A DNA stretch of 64,000 bases from Candidatus Latescibacterota bacterium (GTDB lineage Bacteria > Latescibacterota > UBA2968), in assembly GCA_965205975.1 (NCBI GenBank), contig OZ242195.1, positions 160,001 through 224,000 on the forward strand. Direction: 5' to 3'. Under the pieces are notes generated by a model. It had not been told where the DNA came from, did no database searches, and was given only the letters and a program-made list of their open reading frames with translations. Made by a program: the position numbers and the translations under genes. Of the stretch, positions 45,948 through 62,384 are shown piece by piece (positions within the stretch are counted from its first letter, which is position 1; the number at the start of each line of letters is the position of its first letter).

Positions 45948-46032
45948 AATAGAATTATGATTGTCATTGCGGCATGATTTTGAGCCGCAATCCAGTGGTT
46001 TTGAGCCGCCATACGCGTATAGCGGTTCCTGA

Positions 46033-46079
46033 GTCAGCCCGTTCAATCTCCCCAATAGAAGGGTAGTTGGACGGGCTGA
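46033..46079. repeat. Hairpin related to those at 59863 and 61962
   Basis: TCAGCCCGTTCAA...TTGGACGGGCTGA. Confidence 0.6.
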
Positions 46080-46113
46080 TTATCTTATGTGTAAAAAATG
46101 GGAGGACGGTCAA

Positions 46114-48249
46114 ATGCAAGATAGCCAGGTCAATCGCATTCCCAGATTTATATGGGGCATTGCCGACGATGTGTTGCGCGACCTGTACGTGCGGGGCAAG
46201 TACCGCGATATTATTCTGCCGATGACGGTGATTCGGCGGCTGGATGCGGCGCTTGAGCCGACCAAGCAAGCTGTTCTCGCTATGCGAACCAGACTCGACG
46301 AGGATGGCGTGATTGAACAGGAAGCCGCTTTGAAGCAGGCCGCCGGGCACGCTTTTTACAATGCTTCGCCATTCACGTTGCGCGATCTTCGCGCCCGCGC
46401 CAACCGGCAGCAACTTCGGGCTGATTTTGAGGCGTACCTGGATGGGTTTTCGGCCAATGTGCAGGATATTTTGAAGAATTTTGAGTTTCGCAACCAGATT
46501 CCGCGTTTGTCCGATGCCGATGCGCTCGGCGCGCTGATTGAAAAATTTCTGTCGCCGGATATCAATTTAAGTCCCTATCCGGTGGAGAATGGCGATGGCT
46601 CTGTGCGGTTTTCCGGTCTGGACAATCACGCAATGGGTACGATTTTCGAGGAATTGGTGCGGCGATTTAACGAAGAGAATAACGAGGAGGCTGGCGAGCA
46701 CTGGACGCCGCGCGACGCGGTCAAGTTGATGGCGAATCTCATTTTTCTACCGGTTGCTGACGAGATTGAGTCGAGTACCTATTTGCTCTACGATGGTGCT
46801 TGCGGCACGGGTGGCATGCTGACTGTCGCAGAGGAGACGCTTCGAGATCTCGCCCAGGAGCGTGACAAGCAGGTTTCCACGCATCTTTACGGTCAGGAGA
46901 TCAATGCCGAGACCTATGCGATTTGCAAGGCGGACCTGTTGCTGAAGGGCGAGGGCAGCGCGGCGGATAATATTGTCGGGGGACCGGAGTATTCGACGCT
47001 TTCCAATGATGCTTTTCCATCCCACAAGTTTGACTTTATGCTGAGTAATCCGCCTTATGGCAAGAGTTGGAAGAACGATCTGGCACGCCTGGGTGGCAAG
47101 AGCGGCTTATCTGATCCGCGATTTCTTATTGCTCATGACGGCGATGCGGAGTATTCCCTGCTCACCCGCTCCAGCGATGGGCAGATGCTGTTCCTCGCCA
47201 ATCTGCTTTCCAAGATGAAGCGCGATACCACGCTGGGTAGCCGCATTGCCGAGGTTCACAATGGGAGTTCTTTGTTCACGGGCGATGCCGGGCAGGGGGA
47301 GAGCAATATCCGCCGCTGGATTATCGAAAACGACTATCTGGAGGCGATTGTCGCGCTGCCGCTTAATATGTTCTACAATACCGGTATCGCTACGTACATC
47401 TGGGTGTTGACCAATCGCAAGCCAGCGCACCGGCAGGGCAAGGTGCAACTCATCGATGCGACCGAGTGGTATAATCCCTTGCGTAAGAATCTGGGTGCCA
47501 AGAACTGCGAGTTGTCCAATGACGACATCCGCCGCATCTGCGACGCTTTTCTGGCGTTTGAGGAGACGGAGCAGTCGAAGATTTTTCCCAATAAAGCATT
47601 CGGATACTATAAGGTGACGGTTGAGCGACCACTGCGGCTCGCTGTGGATTTGTCGCCAGAGCAACGGACGCGATTTCGGGATGCCTGTCGAGAAGCAGAT
47701 GAAGAGCCGCTCGCCGATGTGGTTGATCGGATGGCGGAGACTATCGGTAATGGTCTCCATCTCGATTTCAACAGTTTCATGGATGTAGTTGCAGCAGAGG
47801 CGTCTGAACAGGGCGTCAAGCTGATCGCCAAACGAAAAAAGCTGTTGCAAACGTCGCTGGCATTTCGGGACGAAGCCGCCGAACCTGTGATTAAAAGGGT
47901 CCACAAATTGGGCAATAGGGAGCCAGATCCGATTCGCGGTCCGGTAGAGGCGACTGTGAACGGCCAGTGCGTTATCGTCGAATATGAGCCAGACAGCGAG
48001 TTGCGCGATACCGAACAGGTGCTCCTGCTTGAAGAGGGCGGTATTGAGGGTTTCTTGAGACGCGAGGTGCTGCCCTACTCTCCCGACGCCTGGTACGTCC
48101 CGACGAGTGTTAAAATCGGCTATGAGATCAGCTTTACTCGCCATTTCTACAAGCCACAACCCATGCGTTCACGAGAAGAAATCCGCGCTGATATAATGGC
48201 GTTAGAGCGAGAGAGTGAAGGGGTGTTGGCGGAGATTATGGGGGAGTAA
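46114..48249 (+). CDS. hsdM: Type I RM methyltransferase subunit (m6A)
   Basis: IWGIADDVLRD, EAGEHWTPR, YDGACGTGGM, NPPY, IGYEISFTRHFY. GGAGG RBS. Confidence 0.95.
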   Translation: MQDSQVNRIPRFIWGIADDVLRDLYVRGKYRDIILPMTVIRRLDAALEPTKQAVLAMRTRLDEDGVIEQEAALKQAAGHAFYNASPFTLRDLRARANRQQLRADFEAYLDGFSANVQDILKNFEFRNQIPRLSDADALGALIEKFLSPDINLSPYPVENGDGSVRFSGLDNHAMGTIFEELVRRFNEENNEEAGEHWTPRDAVKLMANLIFLPVADEIESSTYLLYDGACGTGGMLTVAEETLRDLAQERDKQVSTHLYGQEINAETYAICKADLLLKGEGSAADNIVGGPEYSTLSNDAFPSHKFDFMLSNPPYGKSWKNDLARLGGKSGLSDPRFLIAHDGDAEYSLLTRSSDGQMLFLANLLSKMKRDTTLGSRIAEVHNGSSLFTGDAGQGESNIRRWIIENDYLEAIVALPLNMFYNTGIATYIWVLTNRKPAHRQGKVQLIDATEWYNPLRKNLGAKNCELSNDDIRRICDAFLAFEETEQSKIFPNKAFGYYKVTVERPLRLAVDLSPEQRTRFRDACREADEEPLADVVDRMAETIGNGLHLDFNSFMDVVAAEASEQGVKLIAKRKKLLQTSLAFRDEAAEPVIKRVHKLGNREPDPIRGPVEATVNGQCVIVEYEPDSELRDTEQVLLLEEGGIEGFLRREVLPYSPDAWYVPTSVKIGYEISFTRHFYKPQPMRSREEIRADIMALERESEGVLAEIMGE

Positions 48250-48263
48250 ATACCGTGCCAACC

Positions 48264-48292
48264 TTGAAGATATGACTAAAGTTAGCTATACT
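48264..48292 (+). promoter_or_regulatory. Sigma70 promoter, copy 1 of promoter type P1
   Basis: TTGAAG-17 bp-TATACT, with a near-identical copy at 59907. Confidence 0.7.
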
Positions 48293-48408
48293 AAATATGC
48301 CAATTGGTAATCGTCACGCCTGCATGCCTGAAGCAGGCGTCTAGGATGGGTGGTGTTTTAACTCTTAGGGAGTGAAACGCGCTACCGAAATCCGAGGGTG
48401 AGAGGACA

Positions 48409-48711
48409 ATGAAATCTTTAGATGACCATATTGAGATTACCCCCGGTATATGCAGCGGAAAGCCTCGTATTGCTGGCCGTCGCATTACCGTGGCACACAT
48501 CGCCATCTGGCATGAACGCCTGGGCAAATGTGCAGATGAAATCGCCACAGAATACGATTTGACACTGGCCGATGTGTATGCAGCATTGGCCTACTATTTT
48601 GATCACCGCGAGGAGATTGACCAATCGATTCAAGAGGGTGAAGAATTTGTGAAGGCCTTCCGCCAACAGACCTTCTCAAAGCTGGCTGAAAAGCTGCAAG
48701 AAAAGAGATAA
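48409..48711 (+). CDS. DUF433-domain protein (putative antitoxin)
   Basis: ITPGICSGKPRIAGRRITV...LTLADVYAALAYY.DH. Confidence 0.88.
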   Translation: MKSLDDHIEITPGICSGKPRIAGRRITVAHIAIWHERLGKCADEIATEYDLTLADVYAALAYYFDHREEIDQSIQEGEEFVKAFRQQTFSKLAEKLQEKR

Positions 48712-48712
48712 T

Positions 48713-48783
48713 GTGGCGAAGATTAAGTTCTACACGGATGAGCATATCTCAAACGCTGTGGGGATGGGCTTCGTCGAAGAGGC
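48713..48783 (+). pseudogene. Truncated and frameshifted DUF5615 (PIN-like) toxin remnant
   Basis: GTG-AKIKFYTDEHISNAV, then after a 1-nt shift DGLRRRG. Follows the DUF433 gene directly. Confidence 0.65.
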
Positions 48784-48791
48784 GAGGATTT

Positions 48792-49343
48792 ATGAGCGAT
48801 AATTCAATTATATCAGTAAGAAATGGGGTAATATCCGCAGTATTAGCAGGTATTATTTTGATGATAGTTCCTGCCGTCAGAGAGCATGCTGTCAGATTTC
48901 TCACATGGCTATGGCTTGGTGTGCTATGGTGTTGGGATGCTTTTATATCATCGTATTCTCTTCCTGGTTGGGCTTGGAGCATCGTTTTTCTATTCGCCAT
49001 TGTCGGAGTCATAACTATCTTTCAAGCCTTAAGGCCCGTTGAAAAACCTGATTATGTATTATATGTCGAAGACGACATACGTGGGGCAAAATGGCGTTGG
49101 AGATGGATCGGAAATCGCTTATTTAATTTGTGGTGTTATTGCCCTGATTGTGATGCAGTTCTTGTTTACCATTATGACTCAATACTTGGTGAAACTCGCT
49201 TTTTATGCGAAAATTGCGGTCACTCTGTTGTAGCTATTATTAAAGGAGGAGACAAAGATTATGCGATTAGAGCGGTTGAGCGTGAAATTGATAGAAGGAT
49301 TAGGACAGGCGAGTACAAGAGGCAACTGAATAACAGCAATTAA
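48792..49343 (+). CDS. Hypothetical membrane protein with a C-terminal zinc ribbon
   Basis: Two to three hydrophobic helices, then CPDC...CENC. AT-rich coding. ATG at 48792 preferred over 48711. Confidence 0.7.
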   Translation: MSDNSIISVRNGVISAVLAGIILMIVPAVREHAVRFLTWLWLGVLWCWDAFISSYSLPGWAWSIVFLFAIVGVITIFQALRPVEKPDYVLYVEDDIRGAKWRWRWIGNRLFNLWCYCPDCDAVLVYHYDSILGETRFLCENCGHSVVAIIKGGDKDYAIRAVEREIDRRIRTGEYKRQLNNSN

Positions 49344-49356
49344 TTTAAGAATATAC

Positions 49357-50685
49357 ATGACTACCCATCTCAAATCCTATCCTGACTACAAGCCCTCTGG
49401 CGTCGAGTGGCTCGGTGATGTGCCTGCCCATTGGGAGGTGAGGCGGCTACGGTCTCTTACTAACATCACAACAGGTGGACAGGACACAATCAATCAACAA
49501 GACGATGGCAAGTATCCTTTTTTCGTACGGTCTCAGACTGTTGAGAAAATAGACACTTGGTCTTTCGATGGTGAAGCAGTTTTGACAGCCGGAGATGGAG
49601 TGGGTGTTGGGAAGGTATTCCATTATATCAACGGAAAGTTCGATTATCATCAACGTGTGTACAAGTTCAGTGATTTTAGTGCCGTTTCGGGAAAGTTTTT
49701 TTTTCACTACTTTAGGGCACTACTTCGCTTTGAAGTGTTGCAGGGGACTGCGAAATCCACGGTAGATTCCTTGAGACTCCCAATGTTGCAGAACTTTCCT
49801 GTAGCTCTCCCACCCCTCTCCGAACAAACAGCCATCGTCCGCTATCTCGACCAGGCCGACGAGCGCATTCGCCGCTACGTCAGAAACAGGGAGCGGCTCA
49901 TCGAACTGTTGGAGGAATATCGACAGGCTATCATCCACCACGCGGTCACGCGCGGCCTTGATCCCGATGTGCGCCTCATGCCCACTGGCGTCGAGTGGCT
50001 TGGAGATGTGCCAGCGCATTGGGAAGTGAGGCGGTTGCAACACGTTGTCACTATGAAAGTGAGTAACGTCGATAAGCATATCAAAGAGGGCGAACTTCCT
50101 GTTCGACTTTGCAATTATGTTGACGTTTATAAGAACGACCGTATTACTGAGAGCGTGTCGTTTATGCGGGCCACCGCTACTACGGACGAAATTGAGCGTT
50201 TTCGGTTAGAATCTGGAGATGTTTTGATTACGAAAGATTCGGAAGTATGGAACGACATCGGGGTGCCTGCATTAGTCGAATATTCAGCAAGAGACTTGGT
50301 TTGCGGTTACCATTTGGCCCTGCTGCGTCCAATTAAGGCTGTGTTAAACGGTGCTTATCTCTTTCGTTCTCTACAAAGTTCGACCATTGCTTATCAGTTC
50401 CACATATCAGCCAACGGAGTAACTCGTTACGGACTGTCGCGTGGTGGAATTAAATCTGCTTTGTTGCCTATCCCCCCTCTCTCTGAGCAAGCTGCTATCG
50501 TCGCATATCTCGATAAGGCGACTGCCGAAATTGACGTCGCTATTGATCGCGCTCGGCGAGAAATTGAGTTGCTGGGCGAATACCGCACGCGGTTGATTGC
50601 CGATGTGGTTACGGGCAAAGTAGATGTGCGCGAAGCAGCGGTCGGTCTGTCCGATGATGGGGATGTATCGTCGCTTGATTTTTGA
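49357..50685 (+). CDS. hsdS: Type I RM specificity subunit
   Basis: Two TRDs, each preceded by (S/T)GVEWLGDVPAHWEVRRL. PPLSEQ.AIV.YLD conserved helices. EYR..LI...VTGK. Confidence 0.95.
   Translation: MTTHLKSYPDYKPSGVEWLGDVPAHWEVRRLRSLTNITTGGQDTINQQDDGKYPFFVRSQTVEKIDTWSFDGEAVLTAGDGVGVGKVFHYINGKFDYHQRVYKFSDFSAVSGKFFFHYFRALLRFEVLQGTAKSTVDSLRLPMLQNFPVALPPLSEQTAIVRYLDQADERIRRYVRNRERLIELLEEYRQAIIHHAVTRGLDPDVRLMPTGVEWLGDVPAHWEVRRLQHVVTMKVSNVDKHIKEGELPVRLCNYVDVYKNDRITESVSFMRATATTDEIERFRLESGDVLITKDSEVWNDIGVPALVEYSARDLVCGYHLALLRPIKAVLNGAYLFRSLQSSTIAYQFHISANGVTRYGLSRGGIKSALLPIPPLSEQAAIVAYLDKATAEIDVAIDRARREIELLGEYRTRLIADVVTGKVDVREAAVGLSDDGDVSSLDF
49397..50034 (+). repeat. Conserved ~50-bp direct repeats preceding each HsdS TRD (49397-49446 and 49985-50034)
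   Basis: CTGGCGTCGAGTGGCT.GG.GATGTGCC.GC.CATTGGGA.GTGAGGCGG occurs twice. Confidence 0.85.
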
Positions 50686-50692
50686 CGAAATT

Positions 50693-50742
50693 GAGCGCGT
50701 TTGACGCCTGTTGCACAGTGTCCCGATATTGGATATATACTC
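50693..50742 (+). promoter_or_regulatory. Sigma70 promoter, copy 1 of promoter type P2
   Basis: GAGCGCGTTTGACGCCTGTTGCAC...GATATTGGATATATACT, with a near-identical copy at 55076-55122. Confidence 0.65.
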
Positions 50743-50764
50743 ATCGAAACGGAGTATGCTAAAC

Positions 50765-52261
50765 ATGACCAACAACCGAGATCATGATTATCTCCTTGGC
50801 TTGGTACGAGAATTGTGCAACCTGCCGCATGAGACCGATTGGGTTGAGTTCAAAGTCAACTATCGTAAGCCACACACCATCGGGGAGTACATCTCTGCGC
50901 TTGCTAATGCAGCGGCTCTCCATGGCAAAGCCCACGCGTACATGCTTTGGGGAGTAGAGAACGGAACGCATGTCGTTGCTGGTACAAAATTTTCGCCAGC
51001 GACCGCGAAAAAGGGCAACGAGCCGCTTGAGACTTGGCTGTTGCGACTTCTAAACCCCCGCATCGACTTTCGTTTTCACGAAGTTATGGTTGATGACCTT
51101 CGCGTCGTTCTCTTAGAGATTGAACGTGCGTCACGGCATCCGGTCGCGTTCAATGGCATCGAGTACATCCGAGTGGGTAGTACTAAGAGAAAGCTCAAAG
51201 ACTATCCCGAAAAGGAACGGACACTTTGGCGTGTGTTTGATCGGGTGAGCTTTGAAGAAGGCATCGCCAACGAACGCCTGAGCAGCGAGGACATTTTGCT
51301 CCTGCTTGACTATCCAAAGTACTTCGATCTGCTCAATGTACCACTGCCCGATGGTCGCGTAGCCATCCTTGACGCACTCCGGCGAGACCGACTGATTGCG
51401 CCCTGCGAGGCAGGCGGCTTCAATATCACAAACCTGGGGGCGATTCTCTTTGCGAAAAATCTTGGCGACTTTCCACGGCTGAAGCGCAAGGCCATTCGGA
51501 TTATCCAGTACGTCGGTACGGGACGCATTGAGACTTTGAGAGAATACGAAGACACAAAAGGCTATGCCGCTGGTTTTGATGAACTGATCGGTTATATTGA
51601 CGCGCAACTGCCAGCAAATGAAGTTATCGGACAAGCACTACGCAAGACGGTACGGGCATTTCCCGAGGTGGCGGTGCGAGAACTGGTGGCGAATGCGCTC
51701 ATCCATCAGGACTTTTTCGCAACGGGAGCCGGGCCTATGGTGGAGATATTTGAAGGCCGCATCGAGATTACGAATCCCGGCGAGCCGTTGGTGGATACTC
51801 AGCGTTTCCTCGATAGCCCTCCGACATCTCGCAATGAAGTACTCGCCTCGCTCATGCGTCGCTTTCAGATTTGTGAGGAGCGCGGCAGTGGGATCGACAA
51901 AGTCGCGATAGAGGTTGAGCGTTACCGGTTACCTGCCCCGCTTTTTGAAGTGCCAAAAGGTTTCACGCGCACTACCCTGTTTGCCCATAAGTCTTTGGTC
52001 GATATGAGTAAAGTAGAGCGGATGCGAGCATGCTACCTGCATGCTTGCCTACAATACGTGACTCGTCAGCGAATGACCAATGCGTCACTACGCGAACGCT
52101 TCGGGATTGCCGAAAAAAACGCTTCGATGGTTTCACGATTCCTCAATGAAACTATGGAAGCAAACCTTATCGTTGTGGCAGATCCCGACGCTGGCCCACG
52201 AAATCGTCACTATCTGCCCTTCTGGACGGCCCTTGAACCGAATGCAGGAGAAATGGTTTGA
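50765..52261 (+). CDS. Schlafen/AlbA_2 + HATPase_c_4 (RecG-C-like) + wHTH protein, copy 1
   Basis: HETDWVEFK, EYISALAN, WGV, RELVANALIHQD, ITNPG, SRNE, EERGSG, TNASLRERFG, YLPFW. Confidence 0.88.
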   Translation: MTNNRDHDYLLGLVRELCNLPHETDWVEFKVNYRKPHTIGEYISALANAAALHGKAHAYMLWGVENGTHVVAGTKFSPATAKKGNEPLETWLLRLLNPRIDFRFHEVMVDDLRVVLLEIERASRHPVAFNGIEYIRVGSTKRKLKDYPEKERTLWRVFDRVSFEEGIANERLSSEDILLLLDYPKYFDLLNVPLPDGRVAILDALRRDRLIAPCEAGGFNITNLGAILFAKNLGDFPRLKRKAIRIIQYVGTGRIETLREYEDTKGYAAGFDELIGYIDAQLPANEVIGQALRKTVRAFPEVAVRELVANALIHQDFFATGAGPMVEIFEGRIEITNPGEPLVDTQRFLDSPPTSRNEVLASLMRRFQICEERGSGIDKVAIEVERYRLPAPLFEVPKGFTRTTLFAHKSLVDMSKVERMRACYLHACLQYVTRQRMTNASLRERFGIAEKNASMVSRFLNETMEANLIVVADPDAGPRNRHYLPFWTALEPNAGEMV

Positions 52262-52428
52262 TGAATCTCCCAAAATGACCCAATGGAAGCTGTATAGAAT
52301 CATAAATGACCGGTTTTTTTCTTGATTGAAAGCCCTAAAATGACCCAATAGAAATATTTTAAAATCTCTAATTTATTTTTTTTCAAATACTTATGAGAAA
52401 TTATTTTTCTTGACTGTTATTTGATTGG
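52261..52428 (+). repeat. Intergenic module D: AAAATGACCCAAT direct repeat plus TTGACTGTTAT-TTGATTG 11-mer pair
   Basis: CC.AAAATGACCCAAT.GAA occurs twice (~52270 and ~52335). 11-mer pair at 52410-52427. Confidence 0.7.
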
Positions 52429-52454
52429 TCATAGAAATGAATCCGCGATGCAGT

Positions 52455-52658
52455 GAAGGGTTCGAGTCGCCATTTGGCCTGGAATTGCTCTCTACGGTGC
52501 ATTGGATCGCCAGCGAGGAGAAGATATTGGACTTTGACGACATCGTGAATCATACTTACGCCTGGAGCGAGAGAAAGAAGCAGTTTTCACAGCGTCAGAT
52601 TAAGATTGCATTTGATGTTTTGTCGGAGAAGAGTTGGATTGAGCATCCCGTAAGATGA
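52455..52658 (+). pseudogene. C-terminal fragment of a DarG-like antitoxin (macrodomain absent)
   Basis: EGFESPFGLELLSTVHW...WSERKKQFSQRQI..A...L.EK.W matches the DarG C-terminal pattern as I recall it. No upstream macrodomain or darT. Confidence 0.7.
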
Positions 52659-52694
52659 AGAACTATTTGCTCTTTTGGATCTGAGTTGCCATTC

Positions 52695-52727
52695 GGTAAT
52701 TGACGGGTAATTGATAGGTAATTGACG
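52695..52727 (+). repeat. Tandem 11-bp repeat GGTAATTGAYR x3
   Basis: GGTAATTGACG GGTAATTGATA GGTAATTGACG. Confidence 0.85.
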
Positions 52728-52800
52728 CAAAGCGGGCCGATAAGTTGTAAATTTCACTTAACTTATTTATTTTATTAAAATTATGTTAATTGATGGTCAT

Positions 52801-52970
52801 TTGCTTGATGGTTGTTTGACGGTTGTTTGATAGAAAACCCTAAAAATGACTCGACAGGGCAGGTTCAATTTTTTAACTTATTGTTATACAAACACTTACG
52901 GTTTTGAAATTTGCTTGATGGTTGTTTGATAGAAAACCAAACGATGACCGATACTACCGGGCGCGGTTTG
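52801..52970 (+). repeat. ~170-bp direct repeat, copy A
   Basis: 3x TTGAYGGTTGT-type 11-mers + AAAACC, central TAACTTATTGTTATACAAA, then 2x 11-mer + AAAACC. Aligns with 54918-55086. Confidence 0.9.
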
Positions 52971-53035
52971 GAAGTTTGTATCGGCGATATGAGGATGTAG
53001 AGCAGCCTGATTTTGACGAAAGCGAGCACGTTAAC

Positions 53036-54724
53036 ATGGGTGAAAGCCAGGACATCGCGCTCATTGACGAGTTGCGCGGTCTGCCGACAGAAACCGAATG
53101 GTTGGAGTTCAAGCGCAATCGCTATGAATCTGAACAGATTGGAGAATATCTGTCCGCGCTTGCAAATTCGGCCTGCATCGCTTCCAAGACGGCTGGCTAT
53201 CTTGTCTTTGGTATTGACGATGAGACACATGAGGTCGTCGGCACAGATTTTGATCCCTATAATACCAAAGCGAAGGGCAATCAAGACCTGCTGCCCTGGG
53301 TTGGGGCGGGGTTGCATCCGAATGCAGGATTCGAGCCACGTATTGTCAATCATCCGGATGGTCGGGTCGTTGTCTTCGAGGTTGGCCCCGCGAGAGATCA
53401 ACCGGTTAGCTTTTACGGAAAAGCTTATGTCCGCGTAGGTTCCAGCAAGACCGAACTTAGCAAGTATCCCGAGAAGGCTCGCGTGATTTGGACGCGCGGG
53501 AGCGACTGGTCTGCAGAGGTGTGTGAACAGGCGCGGCTTGATGATCTTGACCCCAATGCCCTGGTCAAGGCGCGCGAGCAGTTCGTCATCAAGCATCCGG
53601 CGCAGGCGGATGAGGTCAAGGAGTGGGACGATGCGACGTTTCTCAACAAAGCCCGGGTTCTAAGACAGGGTGCTGTGACGAATACCGCACTGCTGTTGTT
53701 GGGACGGCCGGAATCGTCGGCTCTACTCTCGCCGATGGTGGCTAAAATTTCCTGGATACTCAAGGACGATCACAATATCGAGTTAGATTACGAGCATATT
53801 GGACCGCCGTTCTTGCTTGCAGGGGACCGCCTTCTGAAGCGCGTCCGCAACCTCACTGTGCGCGCCCTGCCGAGTGGGACACTGTTCCCTCAAGAAATTA
53901 CTCAGTACGACCCCTGGGTAATCCGCGAAGCCCTGCACAACAGCATTGCACATCAGGACTATCGTCTGCACGGACGGATTGTTGTCGTCGAATTTCCCGA
54001 CCGCATTTTGCTGACCAATGTCGGGGATTTTCTGCCCGGCGATGTTGAGACGGTCATTCAACAGGACGCCCCCCAGGCTATCTACCGCAATCCATTCCTT
54101 GCTGATGCCATGGTTGAATTGAATCTGATTGATACTCAGGGTGGCGGCATTAAGCGCATGTTCGATACACAGAGGAAGCGTTTCTTTGCGCTTCCTGACT
54201 ACGATTTGACGCGGACAAATAGTGTGGCTGTAAGCATCCACGGCCGCATTCTTGATGAGCGCTATACTCGGCTCCTGATGGAACGAACTGATCTGAACCT
54301 CAGTCAGGTTATGCTTCTTGACCAGATGCAGAAGGGAATGCGTATCAGCCGGGAAGATCATCGCGATCTGAAGGCCAGTGGCCTTGTTGAAGGCCGTTAC
54401 CCTAACTTAATGGTCGCTGAATCGATTGCTAAGGTGACGGATGACACTGACCGTTACCTCATAGAACGCGGATTCGACAAGCAGTACTACCTGGATATGA
54501 TTTTAACCTTGATCCGCGAACATGGTTCGGTCAGTCGCAAAGAGATCGATCAAGCCCTGATTTCGCAGCTTCCTGATCGGCTGACAGAGGAGCAGAAGCG
54601 GTGGAGAGCTCAGAATCTCATACAGGATCTGCGTCGCTCCGGTTTGATCGTCAACCAGGGGACCCGTGCCCAACCTGCCTGGATGCTCTCAGACGCACAT
54701 CAGGGAAGGACATTTCATACATAA
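53036..54724 (+). CDS. Schlafen/AlbA_2 + HATPase_c_4 + wHTH protein, copy 2
   Basis: TETEWLEFK, EYLSALAN, FGIDD, REALHNSIAHQDY, YRNPFLA.AM, DTQGGGI. Confidence 0.88.
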   Translation: MGESQDIALIDELRGLPTETEWLEFKRNRYESEQIGEYLSALANSACIASKTAGYLVFGIDDETHEVVGTDFDPYNTKAKGNQDLLPWVGAGLHPNAGFEPRIVNHPDGRVVVFEVGPARDQPVSFYGKAYVRVGSSKTELSKYPEKARVIWTRGSDWSAEVCEQARLDDLDPNALVKAREQFVIKHPAQADEVKEWDDATFLNKARVLRQGAVTNTALLLLGRPESSALLSPMVAKISWILKDDHNIELDYEHIGPPFLLAGDRLLKRVRNLTVRALPSGTLFPQEITQYDPWVIREALHNSIAHQDYRLHGRIVVVEFPDRILLTNVGDFLPGDVETVIQQDAPQAIYRNPFLADAMVELNLIDTQGGGIKRMFDTQRKRFFALPDYDLTRTNSVAVSIHGRILDERYTRLLMERTDLNLSQVMLLDQMQKGMRISREDHRDLKASGLVEGRYPNLMVAESIAKVTDDTDRYLIERGFDKQYYLDMILTLIREHGSVSRKEIDQALISQLPDRLTEEQKRWRAQNLIQDLRRSGLIVNQGTRAQPAWMLSDAHQGRTFHT

Positions 54725-54917
54725 AAATTAAAGAAAACGAGTCTAAAAAAGGGTAGTATATAAAAGAAGAAATATATAAATATTTGTTTTAAAAAGATTT
54801 GTCCTTTAATAAATTTTAGAATATTTTGAGAGTTTATTAAAGGATTTATTAAAGGATTTAGCAAAGCCGCGTTGTTTTTCAAGCTCTCAATTGACTATGA
54901 GCCTGAATCTTTTAACT

Positions 54918-55086
54918 TTGTTTGACGGTTGTTTGATGGTTGTTTGATGGAAAACCCGAAAAATGATTCAGAAAAGCAGATTCGATTCTGTAACTTATTG
55001 TTATACAAATATTTACTGTTTTGTAATTTGCTTGATGGTTGTTTGATGGAAAACCAAATGATCACTGGCACAACCGAGCACGTTTG
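54918..55086 (+). repeat. ~170-bp direct repeat, copy B
   Basis: Same architecture as copy A, with the same 110-bp offset between the two 11-mer arrays. Confidence 0.9.
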
Positions 55087-55093
55087 ACACCTA

Positions 55094-55122
55094 TTGCACA
55101 GCATCGCGATATTGGATATACT
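55094..55122 (+). promoter_or_regulatory. Sigma70 promoter, copy 2 of promoter type P2
   Basis: TTGCAC-17 bp-TATACT. Confidence 0.7.
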
Positions 55123-55250
55123 CTCACAGACTTGAAGAACCATAGTGAGGCCACGCGAAATAATTTGAGGGTGGAGGTCTTTGAAGGGGCTATGGAAGAA
55201 TTGGGTGATGTGACGATTGTAGCAGAGGTTAATGATAGAGGTTGTAACCC

Positions 55251-56423
55251 ATGAGTAGCCGACGTATGCAAATAACATTGCAGCCTGCTGTGTTGCGGTG
55301 GGCGCGGGAGCGGGCGCGCATTGATGCCGAGCAACTGGCGGATAAGATGCAGGTGAAGCCAGAGCGCGTGTTGGCGTGGGAACGCGATGGCAGGATCAGC
55401 ATTGCCCAGGCAGATAAACTTGCCCAGCGTACGCATACCGCTCTGGGCTTACTATACTTAACAGAGCCGCCCAAAGATCTCTTGCCAATACCCGATTTTC
55501 GTACCCGAGACGATGATCTGCAGCCGAGTGTCAATCTCCTCGATACTATTTATCTGATGCAGCGTCGTCAAGCCTGGATGCGCGACGAGTTAATCGGGGA
55601 GGGTGCACGACCGCTGAACTTCATTGGAAGCTATGAGATAGGTGGCGATCCCCTGCAGGTCGCTCATGCGATGCGCGATGCGCTTCAACTTGCTGACGAT
55701 TGGGCAGCATCTGTATCTACCTGGTCTAATGCACTTGGGTATTTGCGGAGTAGAGCCGAGGATGCCGGTGTGCTGGTGGTTTTCAATGGTGTGGTGGAAA
55801 ATAATACAAGCCGCAAACTCGATCCGGATGAATTTCAGGGTTTTGCTCTCGTAGATGAGTATGCCCCATTGGTCTTTGTGAACAATGCCGACTTCAAAGC
55901 CGCGCAGATGTTCACCCTGGCTCACGAACTCGCACATCTTTTTGTTGGAGAGACTGGGGTGTCCAGTTTTGAACATCTAAAGTTCGATTCTAATACCACA
56001 GAGAGATTTTGTGACCAGGTATCGGCGGAGTTTTTAGTGCCGGCAGCAGAGTTGCGAGCCTTCTGGCCTACAACTACGAGGGCAAGTGATCCGTATCAGT
56101 CTATTGCACACCAGTTTAAAGTAAGCTCTCTCGTAGCCGCACGCCGAGCACGCGATCTCGGCTTGATTCAACCGATTGCCTTTTTCAAATTCTATGACGA
56201 ATATATGGAGAGGGAATGGCATAGTAGCCAGCAGACTCAAGCAAGTGGTGGAAATTTCTGGAATACTCAGAAATGGCGCATCGGCACCCGCTTTGGCACG
56301 GCAATCTTCCGTGCAGTGAAGGAGGGTCGTCTGCTCTATCGCGAGGCGTATAATCTCACCGGTCTTAAGGGGGAAACTTTTGAAAATATGCGAGAAAAGA
56401 TGGGGATACTGCCCGGTACTTGA
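55251..56423 (+). CDS. XRE-HTH + ImmA/IrrE-family Zn metallopeptidase
   Basis: LRWARER HTH, PDFRT, EF.GFAL, FTLAHELAH (HExxH), ERFCDQVSAEFL.P. Confidence 0.9.
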   Translation: MSSRRMQITLQPAVLRWARERARIDAEQLADKMQVKPERVLAWERDGRISIAQADKLAQRTHTALGLLYLTEPPKDLLPIPDFRTRDDDLQPSVNLLDTIYLMQRRQAWMRDELIGEGARPLNFIGSYEIGGDPLQVAHAMRDALQLADDWAASVSTWSNALGYLRSRAEDAGVLVVFNGVVENNTSRKLDPDEFQGFALVDEYAPLVFVNNADFKAAQMFTLAHELAHLFVGETGVSSFEHLKFDSNTTERFCDQVSAEFLVPAAELRAFWPTTTRASDPYQSIAHQFKVSSLVAARRARDLGLIQPIAFFKFYDEYMEREWHSSQQTQASGGNFWNTQKWRIGTRFGTAIFRAVKEGRLLYREAYNLTGLKGETFENMREKMGILPGT

Positions 56424-56596
56424 CTGTTACTTGACTGGTAACTGGCGATGCGAGATCATATTTCTTATAACTTATTGAATATACGACGTTTGCTTTATTT
56501 GACTGTTATTTGACTGACAATCGACAATATGAGATCGCATTTTTCATAAATTATTGAAAATGAGACATTTATTTTATTTGACTGTTATTTGACTGA
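56420..56596 (+). repeat. 79-bp-period tandem array of TTGACTGTTAY-TTGACTG pairs (56420, 56499, 56578)
   Basis: Three 18-bp cores. The two intervening segments resemble each other (GAGATC...ATAAMTTATTGAA). Confidence 0.85.
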
Positions 56597-56615
56597 AAAG
56601 CGTTTGGAACGATAT

Positions 56616-56676
56616 ATTTCCGTGCCCAAAAGCAACCCGATGCGAGAGAGTAAGGTATGAAGAGTCCGGATACTGA
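56616..56676 (+). pseudogene. 3' remnant of a BrnT-like toxin gene
   Basis: Reads ...KATRCERVRYEESGY* and overlaps the ATG at 56657. Compare RIISARKASRKER in the intact brnT. Confidence 0.55.
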
Positions 56677-59600
56677 ACCAACGCAATCTCAAAAAGAAGA
56701 GTTGGATGCGCTTGCGGCTCTGTCCGATGACGAGATAGATACTTCTGAGATTCCGGAGGTTCTTGAGGGGGCAAATTCTGTACGCGGGCTGTTTCATAAG
56801 TCCGCCAGCGAGCGGAGCAAGGCGATAGGTGAACTCAGAGGCAAACGCCCGTCGGTTACGGATACCTCTGAACTCGGTTTGGAAGATCGCATTTGCGAGG
56901 TGCTGGCTGGTAGGGGGGGTAAATCGGATACGGGTGATGTAGGGGAGCGTCCGGCTGCCTATAGCGCGGGTTGGCGTTATGGGGAGCGCGAGGATTACGA
57001 CCGCGAGTATTGTGTGGATCTGGCGCAGTTGACTGCTTTTCTGGTGGCGACGCAGCCGAAGGTTGCTGACGCGCTGTCTCTGGAGAGTGATAATCCGACG
57101 CGACGCCGGTTTCTCGCCCGGTTGAAGAGTGAGGTTGGCAGGCGCGGTATTGTGGATGCGCTTCGCAATGGTGTTAAGCACGGACCGCATGATATTACGC
57201 TTTTTTATGGTGCGCCATCGCCGGGCAACCGACGGGCAGCGATGCTTTACGAGCAGAATCTTTTTTCGGTTACGCGCCAGTTGTCGTATAGCAATGCCAA
57301 TAAGCGGCTTGCACTTGATCTCGCGCTGTTTATCAATGGTCTGCCAGTGGCGACTTTTGAGTTGAAAAATAGTCTTACGAAGCAGACGGTGGCAGATGCG
57401 GTTGAGCAATACAAACGCGACCGCGATCCGAGGGAGGAACTTTTCCGCATTGGTCGTTGTTTGGCTCACTTTGCTGTGGATGAACACGAGGTAATGTTTT
57501 GTACGCATCTCAGGGGCAAGTCGTCCTGGTTTCTGCCTTTTAATAGGGGTTGGAATGATGGTGCGGGTAATCCGCCTAATCCCAATGGTCTTAAGACCGA
57601 TTATTTGTGGCAGGAGGTTCTGACCCGGCAGAGTTTGACGGATATTATCGAGAATTACGCTCTGCTGGTGGAGTCTGCTGACGTGCAGACCGGACGCAAG
57701 GCGCGGACGCAAATCTGGCCTCGCTATCACCAGTTGGATGTGGTGCGGAAATTGCTGGCTGATGCTGTAGAGAGGGGGGCGGGGCAGCGCTATCTCATTC
57801 AGCATTCGGCGGGTAGTGGGAAGTCCAATTCTATCGCCTGGTTGGCGCACCGCCTGATTGGGTTGGAAAAGGGCGGTGAGACGGTTTTTGATTCGATTAT
57901 TGTTGTGACTGATCGGATTATTCTGGATCGGCAGATCAACGATACGATTCGGCAGTTCGCGCAGGTGGGGGCGACTGTTGGGCACGCCGAAAGATCTGGC
58001 GATTTGCGGCGCTTTATTGTTGAGGGAAAGAAAATCATTATCTCTACTGTGCAGAAGTTTCCGTTTATCCTGGATGAGATTGGTACAGAACATCGGGGGA
58101 ATCGCTTTGCGATTATCATTGATGAAGCGCATTCCAGTCAGGGTGGGCGTACGTCTTCGGCGATGGCGCAGGCATTGGGCGATCATGAGGACGGAGATGA
58201 AGAAGATACTTTTGAAGATCAGATTAACCGGATTATTGAGCAGAAGCGTCTGTTGACCAATGCGAGCTATTTTGCCTTTACTGCCACGCCGAAGAATAAG
58301 ACGCTTGAGTTATTTGGCACGCCAGTGCCGCAGCCCGATGGCACGACAAAGCATCGGTCCTTCCACGGCTATGCGATGAAACAGGCGATTGAGGAGGGGT
58401 TTATTCTGGATGTGCTGGGTAATTATACGCCGGTAAAGAGCTACTACCATCTCGCGAAGACGGTAACGGATGATCCGGAATTTGATACAATAAAGGCGAA
58501 GAAGAAACTCATCCGCTATGTGGAAACGCACAGTCATGCGATTCGTCTCAAAGCGGAGATTATGGTTGACCATTTCCACGAGCAGGTGCTGGCACCGCGC
58601 AAAATTGGCGGACAGGCGCGGGCGATGGTCGTAACGGGTGGTATTCAGATGGCGATTACCTACTATCACGCCATTCGCAATTACCTGAATGAGCGCAATA
58701 GCCCGCACAAAGCTATTGTCGCTTTTTCTGGTGAGGTGGATTACGGTGGTGAGAGGGTGAGTGAGGCGTCGTTGAACGGTTTTCCGTCATCGCAAATTGC
58801 CAGTAAGATTCAGGAAGATCCCTATCGGTTGCTGGTCTGTGCGGATAAGTTCCAGACGGGGTATGATGAGCCTTTATTGCATGTGATGTACGTGGATAAG
58901 GTGCTTTCTGGCATTAAGGCCGTGCAAACGCTCTCTCGTCTCAACCGCGCCCATCCGGATAAGCGCGATACGTTTGTGCTGGATTTCTACAATGACGCTG
59001 ACATGATAAAGGACGCTTTTGCTGATTACTACCGCACGACTATTTTGGCGGATGAAACCGATCCCAACAAGTTGCACGATCTCAAGGCCGCGCTGGATGG
59101 CCGGCAGGTTTATTCCGATGAGCAAGTCCGCGCTCTGGTGGCGTCGTATTTGAAGGGCGATGACCGCAGTGCTCTTGATCCCATTCTGGACGCGTGTGTG
59201 GCGATTTATCGCAGTGAACTGGATGAGGATGGGCAGGTTGAGTTTAAGGGCAATGCCAAAGCCTTTGTGCGCGCATACAACTTCTTGTCTCAGGTGCTTC
59301 CCTACGCGAATGTGGATTGGGAGAAGCTTTCCATTTTTCTGAATTTTCTCGTTCCCAAGTTGCCGACGCCCGCTACTGAAGATTTGTCGGTGGGTATTGA
59401 GGGTGCTATTGATATGGATAGCTATCGCGCCGAGAAACAGGCGACGATGCAAATTCTGCTGTCCGATGAGGATGCCGAGATCGAGCCGGTGCCCACGGGT
59501 GGTGGCGGTCATAAGCCAGAGCCGGAAATGGACCGGCTTTCCAATATTCTCCGGTCGTTCAACGATCTTTTTGGCGATATTCCGTGGACCAATGAAGACC

Positions 59601-59836
59601 GCATTCGCAGGATGATTACCGAGGATGTTCCGAAGATGGTTGATGAGGATAGTGCTTATCGCAATGCGCGGGAACATTCAGATGAGCAGAATACGCGCAT
59701 TGAACACGATAAGGCGCTGGAGAAGGCGATTATGGCTCTGCTCTCTGACGATACGGAACTTTACAAGCAGTATTCCCAGAATGAAGCGTTTAAGCGCTGG
59801 CTGGAGAATAGCGTGTTTGAACTGACCAATCGCTAA
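56657..59836 (+). CDS. hsdR: Type I RM restriction subunit with a BrnA-like N-terminal extension
   Basis: D...F.NG.P..TFELKN nuclease motif, QHSAGSGKS, DEAH, FTATP, QTLSRLNR. About 66 extra residues precede TDTSE.GLE. Confidence 0.95.
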   Translation: MKSPDTEPTQSQKEELDALAALSDDEIDTSEIPEVLEGANSVRGLFHKSASERSKAIGELRGKRPSVTDTSELGLEDRICEVLAGRGGKSDTGDVGERPAAYSAGWRYGEREDYDREYCVDLAQLTAFLVATQPKVADALSLESDNPTRRRFLARLKSEVGRRGIVDALRNGVKHGPHDITLFYGAPSPGNRRAAMLYEQNLFSVTRQLSYSNANKRLALDLALFINGLPVATFELKNSLTKQTVADAVEQYKRDRDPREELFRIGRCLAHFAVDEHEVMFCTHLRGKSSWFLPFNRGWNDGAGNPPNPNGLKTDYLWQEVLTRQSLTDIIENYALLVESADVQTGRKARTQIWPRYHQLDVVRKLLADAVERGAGQRYLIQHSAGSGKSNSIAWLAHRLIGLEKGGETVFDSIIVVTDRIILDRQINDTIRQFAQVGATVGHAERSGDLRRFIVEGKKIIISTVQKFPFILDEIGTEHRGNRFAIIIDEAHSSQGGRTSSAMAQALGDHEDGDEEDTFEDQINRIIEQKRLLTNASYFAFTATPKNKTLELFGTPVPQPDGTTKHRSFHGYAMKQAIEEGFILDVLGNYTPVKSYYHLAKTVTDDPEFDTIKAKKKLIRYVETHSHAIRLKAEIMVDHFHEQVLAPRKIGGQARAMVVTGGIQMAITYYHAIRNYLNERNSPHKAIVAFSGEVDYGGERVSEASLNGFPSSQIASKIQEDPYRLLVCADKFQTGYDEPLLHVMYVDKVLSGIKAVQTLSRLNRAHPDKRDTFVLDFYNDADMIKDAFADYYRTTILADETDPNKLHDLKAALDGRQVYSDEQVRALVASYLKGDDRSALDPILDACVAIYRSELDEDGQVEFKGNAKAFVRAYNFLSQVLPYANVDWEKLSIFLNFLVPKLPTPATEDLSVGIEGAIDMDSYRAEKQATMQILLSDEDAEIEPVPTGGGGHKPEPEMDRLSNILRSFNDLFGDIPWTNEDRIRRMITEDVPKMVDEDSAYRNAREHSDEQNTRIEHDKALEKAIMALLSDDTELYKQYSQNEAFKRWLENSVFELTNR

Positions 59837-59896
59837 CGTCAGGTACGTTGCGTAGCAAAAAACAGCCCGTCCAAAAAGTTGGATGGGCTATTTTTT
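59799..59896 (+). repeat. hsdR 3' end + terminator, duplicated at 61909-61994
   Basis: GGCTG.A.A.TAGC.TGTTTGAACT...CAGGTAC...GCGTA..AAAAAACAGCCCGTCC...TGGATGGGCTATTTTTT in both copies. Confidence 0.8.
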
Positions 59897-59906
59897 ATTC
59901 TCAGTC

Positions 59907-59935
59907 TTGAATATGTGGATAAAGTTGGCTATACT
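59907..59935 (+). promoter_or_regulatory. Sigma70 promoter, copy 2 of promoter type P1
   Basis: TTGAAT-17 bp-TATACT. Shares TAAAGTT.GCTATACTAAAT with the copy at 48264. Confidence 0.7.
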
Positions 59936-60018
59936 AAATGCGGCATTGAACATGCGTTCTCCGAGTGTCTGGGCGGGAGTAATGGGCTATTGAGCCAAAT
60001 TATCACAGGCGATTTATA

Positions 60019-61890
60019 ATGGCAGAACTACGATTCGACATCACGCCGTTTCTGGATCAAGACGAAGGCCAGCACTTTGATCGCAAGTCGTTGTATGAGG
60101 GAGAAGATGGTGCCAAACGGTCACGTAACCGCCGCGTCGTACGGGATCAGGTTGCGGAATATGTGGCGGGCTTTGCCAATGCCGAAGGTGGCGTGCTTGT
60201 CCTGGGCATAGAGGATGACCGCACCATTACTGGACACCAGCTTCCTCAGGATGCCTTGAACAGTATCCTGAAGACCCCGAGCACTCGCTTGAAGCCCGTA
60301 CAGCCCGATGGCTTTGTTATGAATGTTCAAGGGTGCGAACTGATTGTTTTTGATGTGCCAGCTTCAGATGTTCCCGTTCAGGTAATCGGGGATGGCTTCC
60401 CGCTGCGAATGGGCGACCAGACAGTGCAATCCAGCGAGAGCCAAATCAATACGCTCAAGTTTGAAGGTATGGCGGAGAGTTGGGAAAGCCGACGATCATC
60501 AATGACTTTGGCTGATCTGGATGAACGACTGTTAGAACGCGCAAAACAAGGGGCGGGCTTATCCGCTTTGACTGATGAAGAATATTTGCTCAAGCGCAAA
60601 TTGGCTGATCGCCGAGGGCGAGGAATCGTGCTTCGAAATGCTGCGGCGTTGCTCTTTGCCCGTTATGGTCCGGACCATCCCAATGCTGGCGTTCGTCTAT
60701 TTCGTGTTATCGGCACCGAGCGCTATACCGGCCCCGAACACAATGTCGAAGAACGCCCGCGCTGCGAAGGCAACTTGCCTGCGGTCATATCGGAAATCCG
60801 CACGGTTATCAGCAGTCTGTTGCGACGCCCTATGCGGCTCGTGGGGAGTCGCTTTCAGGAATCCGCCGAATACCCGGATTTCGCATGGCTGGAGGCGTTG
60901 CTTAATGCCATTGCACACCGCGATTACAGGATTGAAGGCACCTGCATAGAGGTCTGGTTATTCGATGATCGCATGGAAGTGGTCAGCCCGGGCGGACTGG
61001 TCGGCAATTTGACCACAGAAGCGTTGCTCACGCTCAAGCGCGTCCATCACAGCCGCAATCCCCGCCTGATCCGGGTGCTTGTAGATCTCGGTCTCGCACG
61101 CGACCAGGGCGAGGGTATCCCTCGGATGTTTGCAGAGATGGAAGACGCTTTTTTGCCAAGGCCAGATATAGATGCGACCAACCGTAGCGTCACGGTCACG
61201 CTTCGGAACACGCTTACTCTGAACGCCAGTGATAGAGAATTTATCTCGGCACTCGGTGATATTGAGCTTTCTCGCAATGAGTTTCGGGCATTGCTTTACA
61301 CTTATCGTCATGATCAGATAGACAATGCCAGGCTGCGTGCTTTATCCGGTCTTGATACCTTGAGTGCCAGTTATCTTTTACGCGGTCTCCGCGACCGAGA
61401 TTTGCTAAAACTTTATTCTCATGGTCCCAACAGCTACTATACATTGACTTCTGTACTGACATCGCAAGTTGGGAAGTACAAATCAGAAACTGGAGAGTCC
61501 AGAACAAATGATGGAAAGTTCCACACGGATGGGAGGGAGTTCAGTGCGGATACCGGGGAGTTCAGTGCGGATACCGGGGAGTTCAGTGCGGATACCGGGG
61601 AGTTCAGTGCGGATACCGGGGAGCTTCCTGATGACATCAAGGCCGCTATTGATCGACTTGGTCGGCGACCGCGTCGAGAAAATCTACGCCCTGTCATTCG
61701 CGCGATATGCGATCAAGGGAGATGGGTAACTGCCGCTACACTCGCCCGCTACCTGAGCTTAAAACAAGAGAATCTAATAGCAGGGCATCTCGGGGAAATG
61801 GTGCAAAGTAAAGAACTTGAGCGACGCTTTCCGGATAAGCCCAACCATCCTCGTCAAGCTTACCGAGCTGTTGCTTCCCAACGCCCGTAG
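60019..61890 (+). CDS. Schlafen/AlbA_2 + HATPase_c_4 + wHTH protein, copy 3, with a VNTR linker
   Basis: DEGQHFDRK, GFANAEGG.L.LGI.DD, EALLNAIAHRDY, DDRMEV.SPGG, SRNP, GEGI, PDKPNHP.QAY. Confidence 0.88.
   Translation: MAELRFDITPFLDQDEGQHFDRKSLYEGEDGAKRSRNRRVVRDQVAEYVAGFANAEGGVLVLGIEDDRTITGHQLPQDALNSILKTPSTRLKPVQPDGFVMNVQGCELIVFDVPASDVPVQVIGDGFPLRMGDQTVQSSESQINTLKFEGMAESWESRRSSMTLADLDERLLERAKQGAGLSALTDEEYLLKRKLADRRGRGIVLRNAAALLFARYGPDHPNAGVRLFRVIGTERYTGPEHNVEERPRCEGNLPAVISEIRTVISSLLRRPMRLVGSRFQESAEYPDFAWLEALLNAIAHRDYRIEGTCIEVWLFDDRMEVVSPGGLVGNLTTEALLTLKRVHHSRNPRLIRVLVDLGLARDQGEGIPRMFAEMEDAFLPRPDIDATNRSVTVTLRNTLTLNASDREFISALGDIELSRNEFRALLYTYRHDQIDNARLRALSGLDTLSASYLLRGLRDRDLLKLYSHGPNSYYTLTSVLTSQVGKYKSETGESRTNDGKFHTDGREFSADTGEFSADTGEFSADTGEFSADTGELPDDIKAAIDRLGRRPRRENLRPVIRAICDQGRWVTAATLARYLSLKQENLIAGHLGEMVQSKELERRFPDKPNHPRQAYRAVASQRP
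61535..61623 (+). repeat. In-frame 21-bp VNTR (GGGAGTTCAGTGCGGATACCG)x4 encoding EFSADTG
   Basis: Four perfect units plus a partial unit, with about three degenerate units immediately upstream. Confidence 0.95.
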
Positions 61891-61908
61891 CCCTTAGTTT
61901 TTTTCCTC

Positions 61909-61994
61909 GGCTGTAAAGTAGCATGTTTGAACTAAGCCAGGTACTCAGCGTACTAAAAAAACAGCCCGTCCTGAAAATGGATGGGCTATTTTTT
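61909..61994. repeat. Degenerate copy of hsdR 3' end + bidirectional terminator hairpin
   Basis: Matches 59799-59896. The hairpin overlaps the stop of the MazG-like gene. Confidence 0.8.
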
Positions 61995-62384
61995 GTCAAA
62001 TCCGCCTTCACGCGCCTGGCGGGTCATTTCCTGGATGAGTTTGGGGGCGGGATCTTCCCATCCTTCGGGTTTGAGTATTTTGCCGTCTTCTCGGCGAATG
62101 ACTTTTCCGTTTACGACTTTTTGCATGTTTGCATTGTGGACGATGTCGAAGAGGGGGTCGAGGTTGATGCCGTTGCGTACGGCGAAGTCGCAGATGTAGT
62201 AAATTGCATCCACGAGCGCGTCAGCCTGTTCTGTGACGGTCTGTGCGGCCATTAACTCGTCCATTTCATCGTTGACCATTTGTCTTATGAATGCAATGCC
62301 TTCTGCTGTCATGTTTTGCGGATGCGCTGGCAGGTGGTCGTTACAGGCCATTGTAAATTCGCGCACTTGAGCCGTGTATCCCAT
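61986..62384 (-). CDS. MazG-like/PRA-PH-family NTP pyrophosphohydrolase
   Basis: V.EF, DE..EL, ADALVD..Y, VH.ANM.K, REDGKILKPEGW. Confidence 0.85.
   Translation of the reverse strand: MGYTAQVREFTMACNDHLPAHPQNMTAEGIAFIRQMVNDEMDELMAAQTVTEQADALVDAIYYICDFAVRNGINLDPLFDIVHNANMQKVVNGKVIRREDGKILKPEGWEDPAPKLIQEMTRQAREGGFDKK

Follow-up and report, generated by a model that had tools for sequence, protein, structure and literature searches.

How can a type I restriction-modification (RM) locus gain, reorder and lose defence genes with no recombinase encoded beside it? We considered this question for the hsd locus of a Candidatus Latescibacterota bacterium, using a stretch of 64,000 nucleotides (hereafter the window, G000:C1:160001-224000) from a 5.56 Mb genome represented by a single contig (several of the public runs containing part of this stretch are sponge metagenomes). 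From mdh to a mazG-like gene, the order is hsdM, DUF433, a gene for a 183-aa hypothetical protein (orf183), hsdS, Schlatpase 1, a darG stump, Schlatpase 2, HTH-M78 (helix-turn-helix/peptidase M78), a brnA::hsdR fusion and Schlatpase 3; "Schlatpase" is the name given to proteins that pair AlbA_2 (PF04326) with PF13749 in the available portion of its source (10.64898/2026.05.29.728809). We conclude that this is probably a variable type I RM locus, likely remodelled by homologous or microhomology recombination, whose repeats are the 3′ tails of Schlatpase genes and predicted targets of the winged helices that such genes encode. The observations beneath this conclusion are that content and order vary between alleles, that broken hsdR starts remain as scars, that arrays of short repeats are joined in register, and that the tails recur in many phyla.

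An earlier note on this DNA had called for comparison of the interval across relatives, and the comparison bears out its expectation of variable cargo. Twenty-one genomes of the genus were compared, 17 of which (own included) have a traceable interval between mdh and mazG/dapL; the remaining four are more distant and differently arranged. The interval extends over 2.1-22.4 kb, and no two of the 17 alleles are alike in content and order. The HTH-M78 gene precedes Schlatpase 2 in G013 and follows it in the window; Schlatpase 3 stands after hsdM in G013 and G032 and after hsdR in the window, each time behind a promoter-like module, P1; and two relatives (G011 and G017) have the permuted order hsdS...hsdR-hsdM...hsdS. 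The cargo of relatives (42 proteins scanned) comprises ThsB-type TIRs, DarTG, OLD-like and KAP NTPases, STAND, a Dcm-HATPase pair, BrnT, HigB and PIN, with IS110, IS4-like and Y1 transposases present as single insertions in G006 and G012; toxin halves (DUF5615, darT, brnT, DUF4411) are often lost first. The same junctions fall on separate branches of a short and partly unresolved tree of flanking genes (16 genomes, 93-96% identical; G013, lacking dapL, was omitted), with four changes for a hybrid of the hairpins T0 and T and four for one hsdR deletion, which points to exchange between species. As separate observations, the permuted loci (L014/L026 in G011, L030/L031 in G017) carry circularly permuted hsd genes with two hsdS, an arrangement expected from a circle integrating via hsdS or from tandem duplication, and in G031 (L184 8382-11089), G001 and G011 (L013, L014) the site is occupied by a ThiF-containing set of genes that looks ubiquitin-like.

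The repeats reported earlier within the island proved real: P1 (48263..48296 and 59906..59939) and a second promoter-like module, P2 (50693..50743, its native place behind hsdS, and again from 55076), occur twice each, as does the hsdR tail with its terminator T (59799..59899, and a decayed copy at 61900..61996), together with 11-mer arrays, a 79-bp unit present 2.2 times and a 169-bp direct repeat (two copies, 83% identical). All coordinates are those of the window and, unless stated otherwise, features lie on the plus strand. The statement that nearly every junction is built from repeats held for 9 of the 11 junctions in the window, but DUF433|orf183 and orf183|hsdS contain none. The 169-bp repeat consists of an orphan tail with an hsdR-start scar behind it, and its tail portion exemplifies a shared module layout, in which two or three 11-mers, an AT-rich spacer and two further 11-mers succeed one another. 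Behind Schlatpase 1 (50765..52261) this element is tail V (52255..52427, with an AT-rich spacer); tail U (the GTAATTGACGG type, 52696..52797), the two copies of tail R (the TTGTTTGATGG type, 52801..52932 and 54918..55049) and tail Q (the 79-bp unit, 56416..56596) stand as orphans, the corresponding gene types being found in G002 and G003 (U), in G005, G006, G016 and G032 (R) and in G011 (Q). In all eight alleles that have a Schlatpase-1 gene, the tail behind it matches the helix type of the gene; V is therefore cognate, and U, both copies of R, and Q are tails whose genes have been lost. The tails of four Schlatpase-1 types are chained in register via their 11-mers. Schlatpase 2 (562 aa, 53036..54724) has a cognate tail of another make (54720..54870), with one inverted and two to three direct 12-mer sites, and in Schlatpase 3 (60019..61890) a 21-mer array (61535-61623) lies within the gene, ahead of the part for the C-terminal winged helix.

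The modules had been read as generic cassette joints; they are instead Schlatpase 3′ tails, as Schlatpase-1 homologues from many phyla are followed by the same layout, whether or not hsd genes are present. A strict detector found such tails in 25/39 Schlatpase-1 loci (41 fetched, two incomplete ones dropped; the detector missed the window's own orthologue), against 3/38 upstream controls and 1/117 shuffles. For Schlatpase-2 homologues (80 loci fetched, 71 usable, the rest having no 3′ end), the same detector gave 14/71 with a tail, a few with other motifs; many more, uncounted and judged by eye, have a site at the stop codon, with one inverted and two to three direct sites. Within the own genome, which contains 44 arrays of 11-, 12- or 21-mer periods, an array lies at the 3′ end of all six Schlatpase genes with a C-terminal winged helix and of none of the six without (winged helices called at Pfam cut-off in two, by weak Pfam or fold matches in two and by eye in two; the tail of Schlatpase 1 entered this count from a genome-wide motif search rather than from the array scorer). 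These arrays are of 11-, 12- or 21-mers, each with its own motif. Elsewhere in the genome, 7.5 perfect copies of another 11-mer, with an AT-rich spacer, lie behind the Schlatpase gene L189 (G000:C1:3659328-3659410), the Schlatpase genes L190 and L194 have intragenic 12-mer arrays before the winged helix, and two further 12-mer arrays (G000:C1:2094016-2094231), possibly the tail of another lost gene, lie just upstream of a Schlatpase gene. Tandem TTGAY 11-mers are far above chance, with 9/10 genome-wide matches inside the island; in 20/21 genomes of the genus all listed matches lie at the hsd locus on one strand, and a reversed control pattern gave 0. A global regulator box (LexA/Pho-like) was rejected because the tandem motif is confined to the hsd locus. 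Searching the own genome by blastn, as suggested in the earlier note, returned no further copies of R, Q, P2 or T.

What, then, are the tails for? We predict that they are binding sites for the winged helix of their own protein. Inner distances between arrays fall at 65-68, 76-79 or 87-89 bp in 28 of 31 cases (45 tails were seeded and 31 gave an array pair), and this stepping by helical turns hints at a protein-DNA complex; the spacing is no more than suggestive because gain or loss of a unit also gives 11-bp steps. An IHF-like word (at most one mismatch to the IHF consensus) lies in 7/7 window spacers and 12/24 family spacers, with 2.4 expected, and the own genome has four HU/IHF genes. All 22 R modules keep a 77-bp spacer without indels between near-invariant arms, while the bases of the spacer drift. 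In 44/44 rows, scored by hand, the residue that follows the helix Asn (K/R vs A/S) is in agreement with the base preceding TTGA (non-T vs T), with 17/61 rows omitted for another residue or for no or a mixed base; an attempted statistical proof of a recognition code failed, just two independent pairs being available. A related Schlatpase tetramerises on ATP and cleaves tRNA, according to the part of the preprint available (10.64898/2026.05.29.728809), and a tetramer fits the 2+2 sites of each tail. We also observed that winged helix and tail types are swapped between close Schlatpase bodies, in the manner of a specificity cassette (L034 vs L037/L038; L035 vs L173-L176).

The arrays could alternatively be neutral repeats, born of slippage, unbound, and travelling with the 3′ end of the gene through a plain deletion-prone hotspot. 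Their copy number does vary freely (two to nine units), linkage alone accounts for the agreement of motif and helix, and many homologues have no strict tail; paired arrays sharing one motif, spacing in helical steps, IHF-like words, spacers free of indels and the 6/6 vs 0/6 split are all unexpected of such repeats, and we regard this explanation as highly improbable. A second alternative differs from our preferred explanation, with which it overlaps, in output alone: the tail would be a transcriptional operator and nothing else, through which the Schlatpase, acting as controller proteins do, would repress or attenuate the gene that follows (often hsdR), its RNase not being regulated by DNA. 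The last 11-mer often ends 7-11 bp before an hsdR start codon, and within the Q arrays TTGAC also gives a -35 match (at 56499 and 56589), as an operator would have it; tails that follow Schlatpases with unrelated downstream genes, and some arrays that are intragenic, argue the other way, and we regard this alternative as rather unlikely.

If the tails are predicted binding sites, why do they so often mark the joints of the island? When the 17 alleles were compared all against all, 83 junction calls resulted, which fell into 33 groups, detection being confined to junctions with both sides present in one other allele. Ten of these 33 junction types lie in 11/12-mer arrays (which make up 1.8% of the DNA), two in terminators, two in hsdR-start scars and 19 elsewhere; on reading, the last class divides into five in conserved hsdS repeats and 14 that are sharp, with an overlap or gap of at most 9 bp outside any repeat and often intragenic. 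The proposal that cargo moves by recombination between shared modules is supported by the 14/33 types in modules; the 14/33 in unrepeated sequence lend it no support. Where arrays meet, the repeats stay in register (U passes into R or Q, and R into Q), and a truncated darG joins R at TTGA. Most R modules are followed by the first codons of hsdR (MxTDTTERGLED), which break off near codon 7, 9, 10, 17 or later and run on into an hsdS end or a cargo leader; the differing break points argue for illegitimate joints and not for the core of a recombinase. Two such scars lie in the window, one in which hsdR start codons are fused to a remnant of the hsdS 3′ end (52944..53032) and one in which the hsdR start is joined via a short shared word to the second copy of P2 (55058..55126). 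Homology-facilitated illegitimate recombination is insertion anchored on one side; either this or the formation of tandem hsd copies followed by deletion would explain the scars.

These joints could in principle be the work of a tyrosine recombinase acting in trans, with the modules as its recombination sites (arm-type repeats plus IHF) and the locus as an integron-like array, a mechanism that the earlier note had entertained. Direct-repeat arrays flanking an IHF-like word do resemble integrase arm regions; module copies are co-oriented and confined to the hsd locus, orphan copies keep their arms and length exactly, ten of the 33 junction types fall in arrays, and the genome has, beside its HU/IHF genes, six PF00589 matches. 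All six lie elsewhere: the window encodes no recombinase, as had been stated, with no tyrosine recombinase, no serine resolvase found, and 11 weak IntI matches (TIGR02249) of which none is above cut-off and none in the window. The attC pattern (RYYYAAC...GTTRRRY) occurs at 0/10 gene ends, the tails R, Q, U and V are no more prone to folding than shuffled sequence (z 0.87 to -0.88), and there is no core site or fixed crossover position, the hsdR scars ending at different codons and 14/33 junctions lying outside repeats. Of the paired XerC and XerD arms that flank a 6-bp core in Xer/dif (pdif) modules, one loose match to the XerD-arm motif sits at 52781, inside an AT-rich spacer. The motif, moreover, changes with the Schlatpase protein rather than with the host, and occurs only with winged-helix Schlatpases. 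In the contigs of eight public runs (runs with small shares being set aside) we found no excised circle or mixed allele distinct from the alleles of other species: joints such as 45949>59863, 59958>48400, 56408>52682 and 48268>59918 match alleles of related species, and the samples are mixed, so they are no evidence either way. We accordingly consider an enzyme in trans, or an integron-like mechanism, improbable.

The best reading of the locus is hence a defence hotspot like the ICR of E. coli, with flanks conserved in 17/21 genomes, cargo dominated by RM, toxin-antitoxin and defence genes and no resident integrase, which grows by hsd-anchored insertion or by duplication and deletion, orphan tails being reused as crossover sites. 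The entry point for new cargo would lie immediately ahead of hsdR, reached either through an hsdR-anchored crossover together with an illegitimate joint or through tandem or permuted hsd copies (as in G011 and G017) and a subsequent deletion. Microhomology deletion would then remove toxins and whole genes; left-over tails, P1 and terminators would serve as crossover points for RecA-type or slippage recombination; and finished junctions may spread between species via the conserved flanks. Several findings count against this account. The strict detector fails in 14/39 Schlatpase-1 and 57/71 Schlatpase-2 loci; the winged helices of two of the six own-genome genes were judged by eye; the helix-base agreement reduces to two independent contrasts (p 0.5) confounded by physical linkage; the 1.8% array baseline is uncorrected for bias to intergenic DNA; and the comparisons were made between species, at 93-96% flank identity, rather than strains. 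A pure operator role, furthermore, does not account for the nine of the 17 alleles that have no Schlatpase-1 gene but retain 2-11 arrays, their arms intact and their spacing fixed.

As for how a tail might act, its four helically phased sites, arranged around an IHF-bent spacer, could take up one ATP-assembled tetramer, and the bound tetramer may control the Schlafen RNase or the transcription of the next gene, often hsdR. A bolder and decidedly tentative proposal extends this: winged-helix Schlatpases, which account for much of the prokaryotic Schlafen repertoire, would be tRNases tethered to their own gene by the four-site, IHF-bent tail, which would act as a DNA antitoxin or sensor whose loss frees the nuclease; winged helix and tail would form an exchangeable specificity module; and orphan tails before hsdR would serve both as a titrating memory and as integrase-free crossover sites. 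If so, loss or degradation of the tail (by phage attack on host DNA or by gene deletion) would release the nuclease, and orphan tails would titrate past and incoming Schlatpases. The cognate tail of winged-helix Schlatpases is the new and directly testable part of this work. Such a DNA element behind the gene offers an immediate ligand and a candidate recognition code for stand-alone HTH Schlatpases, and constructs cut at the stop codon might fail for want of it.

The three Schlatpases of the window all have PF04326 and PF13749 by Pfam. Within the Ex4(E/D)xK motif, E22/E27/K29 are invariant in 50 aligned homologues of Schlatpase 1, and the motif is present in Schlatpases 2 and 3. The model of Schlatpase 1 matches DIP2311 (PDB 3LMM) and Schlafens, and its last 86 residues are predicted to form a winged helix (the fold matches are all to winged helices, none at E<=0.001); the C-terminal HTH of Schlatpase 3 has a weak Fic-like_C match, and that of Schlatpase 2 was judged by eye only. 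NCBIfam has no name for any of the three, Schlatpases 1 and 3 have no match in the viral collection searched, and a plasmid search with Schlatpase 3 gave three partial matches. A plasmid homologue 48% identical to Schlatpase 1 is annotated MloB, a name that originates from Campylobacter.

The RM genes themselves had been described as intact and interleaved with six intact cargo genes. The co-oriented cargo (DUF433, the 183-aa hypothetical, the three AlbA_2+HATPase_c_4 genes, of which Schlatpase 1 adds its winged helix and is MloB-like, and HTH-M78) and hsdM, hsdS and hsdR (a complete type I set by PADLOC and Pfam) are indeed all open reading frames, but hsdR is without its native start, and two of the six cargo genes are the antitoxin halves of pairs in which the PIN partner has been truncated or lost. 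The claim of at least four gene stumps was confirmed, with remnants of DUF5615/PIN, darG (its C-terminus, 52442..52658) and brnA, two hsdR-start scars and one hsdS-end scar. hsdM (46114..48249) encodes a 711-aa methyltransferase; a start at 46087 is spurious, and a TGA in the hsdM matches of seven relatives, considered as recoding, was rejected because it sits just upstream of the true start. The DUF433 antitoxin-like gene (48409..48711) precedes the DUF5615 (PIN-like) stump (48713..48785), an intact form of which accompanies it in G006 and G032, and orf183 (48792..49343), a protein with a hydrophobic N-terminus and two CxxC motifs, retrieved unnamed clusters only in an Atlas look-up. The HTH_3 and peptidase M78 (IrrE/ImmA-like) gene (55251..56423, by Pfam) has lost its DUF4411 partner, which is intact in G006, G007 and G014. 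An in-frame fusion joins the brnA-like stump to hsdR (1059 aa, 56657..59836); it is common to eight alleles (the window and seven relatives), and the stump may supply a start signal. The BrnA label is based on a brnT gene directly upstream in G012. The same stump (window 56657-56860; L001, L007) is fused to a truncated Schlatpase 2 in G002 and G005. The type I RM load of G000 is unusually large, with at least seven further hsdM-like and eight hsdR-like matches elsewhere in the genome.

The promoters were recognised solely by their match to the consensus, with 29 such matches against 18.5 +/- 4.4 in shuffled sequence. The gene behind P1 differs among relatives, and both P1 and P2 seem to be residents of the positions behind hsdM/T and hsdS, not promoters that each cassette brought along. 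The hairpin T0 before hsdM (46033..46080) shares the AGCCCGT arm with terminator T, and T0/T hybrids stand in place of hsdMS in four relatives; in G003 and G005 the inner terminator hairpin before Schlatpase 3 is inverted relative to other alleles. Two REP-like hairpin repeats (45950..46006 and 48297..48366, neither assigned to a strand) have dozens of copies across the genome, about 36 further ones by blastn for the first, and are not specific to the island; a Y1 (RAYT-like) transposase gene lies behind P1 in G012 (L006:3592-4200).

How does the locus compare with known systems? As in integron arrays, co-oriented variable genes are each followed by a repeated element, and growth would be at one end (before hsdR); unlike integrons, there is no IntI, attC, attI or fixed crossover, the elements are specific to a gene family, promoters are internal and partial deletions many. 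The shuffling of hsdS domains via conserved repeats is known as domain movement, and the locus shares features with it: five junction types lie in hsdS repeats, and in hsdS of the window (49357..50685, by PADLOC and Pfam) the first target-recognition domain (49386-49857) is 91% identical to the second one of G016 (L003:7448-7919). Such shuffling concerns hsdS only, however, and no invertase is encoded in the window. PrrC is a protein of the ABC-ATPase/HEPN fold. Its gene in EcoprrI resembles the present arrangement in that an ATPase-linked tRNase, serving as a second line of defence, is encoded inside an operon for type I RM (PMC3874165, PMC12707154), yet PrrC is held by the RM complex, whereas the window proteins combine Schlafen, GHKL and winged-helix parts with a DNA tail.

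The Schlatpases resemble the pSlfn HisKinase(-HTH) proteins, MloB and DIP2311 (PDB 3LMM) in having AlbA_2 with PF13749, the Ex4(E/D)xK motif and a C-terminal HTH, and the pSlfn HisKinase(-HTH) proteins in being tied to defence islands and type I RM; the portions consulted of both sources (10.64898/2026.05.29.728809; PMC13056530) do not mention a cognate array of DNA sites at the 3′ end of the gene. Of 103,533 prokaryotic Schlafen proteins, 58.6% are of the Schlafen-GHKL class, by the available part of the former, and in that of the latter protection was conferred only by DUF262 and Ig-like fusions, no HisKinase fusion tested having shown defence. No description of the tails was found in the literature searched, including the accessible text of the Schlatpase preprint and PMC13056530; supplements and most subscription journals fell outside this search.

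The hotspot papers, in the sections available, leave integrase-free accretion as speculation (PMC10250203, PMC9122126), and this locus lets one follow, base by base, how cargo can be accreted and shuffled in a hotspot that has no integrase. Like E. coli ICR and P. aeruginosa cDHS1 as described in the accessible parts of PMC12707154 and PMC10250203, it holds variable RM and toxin-antitoxin content between conserved core genes with no obvious mobile element; those descriptions mention no modules of the present kind, whereas here the gene order is permuted and the junctions are readable at base level, as Schlatpase tails and hsdR-start scars.

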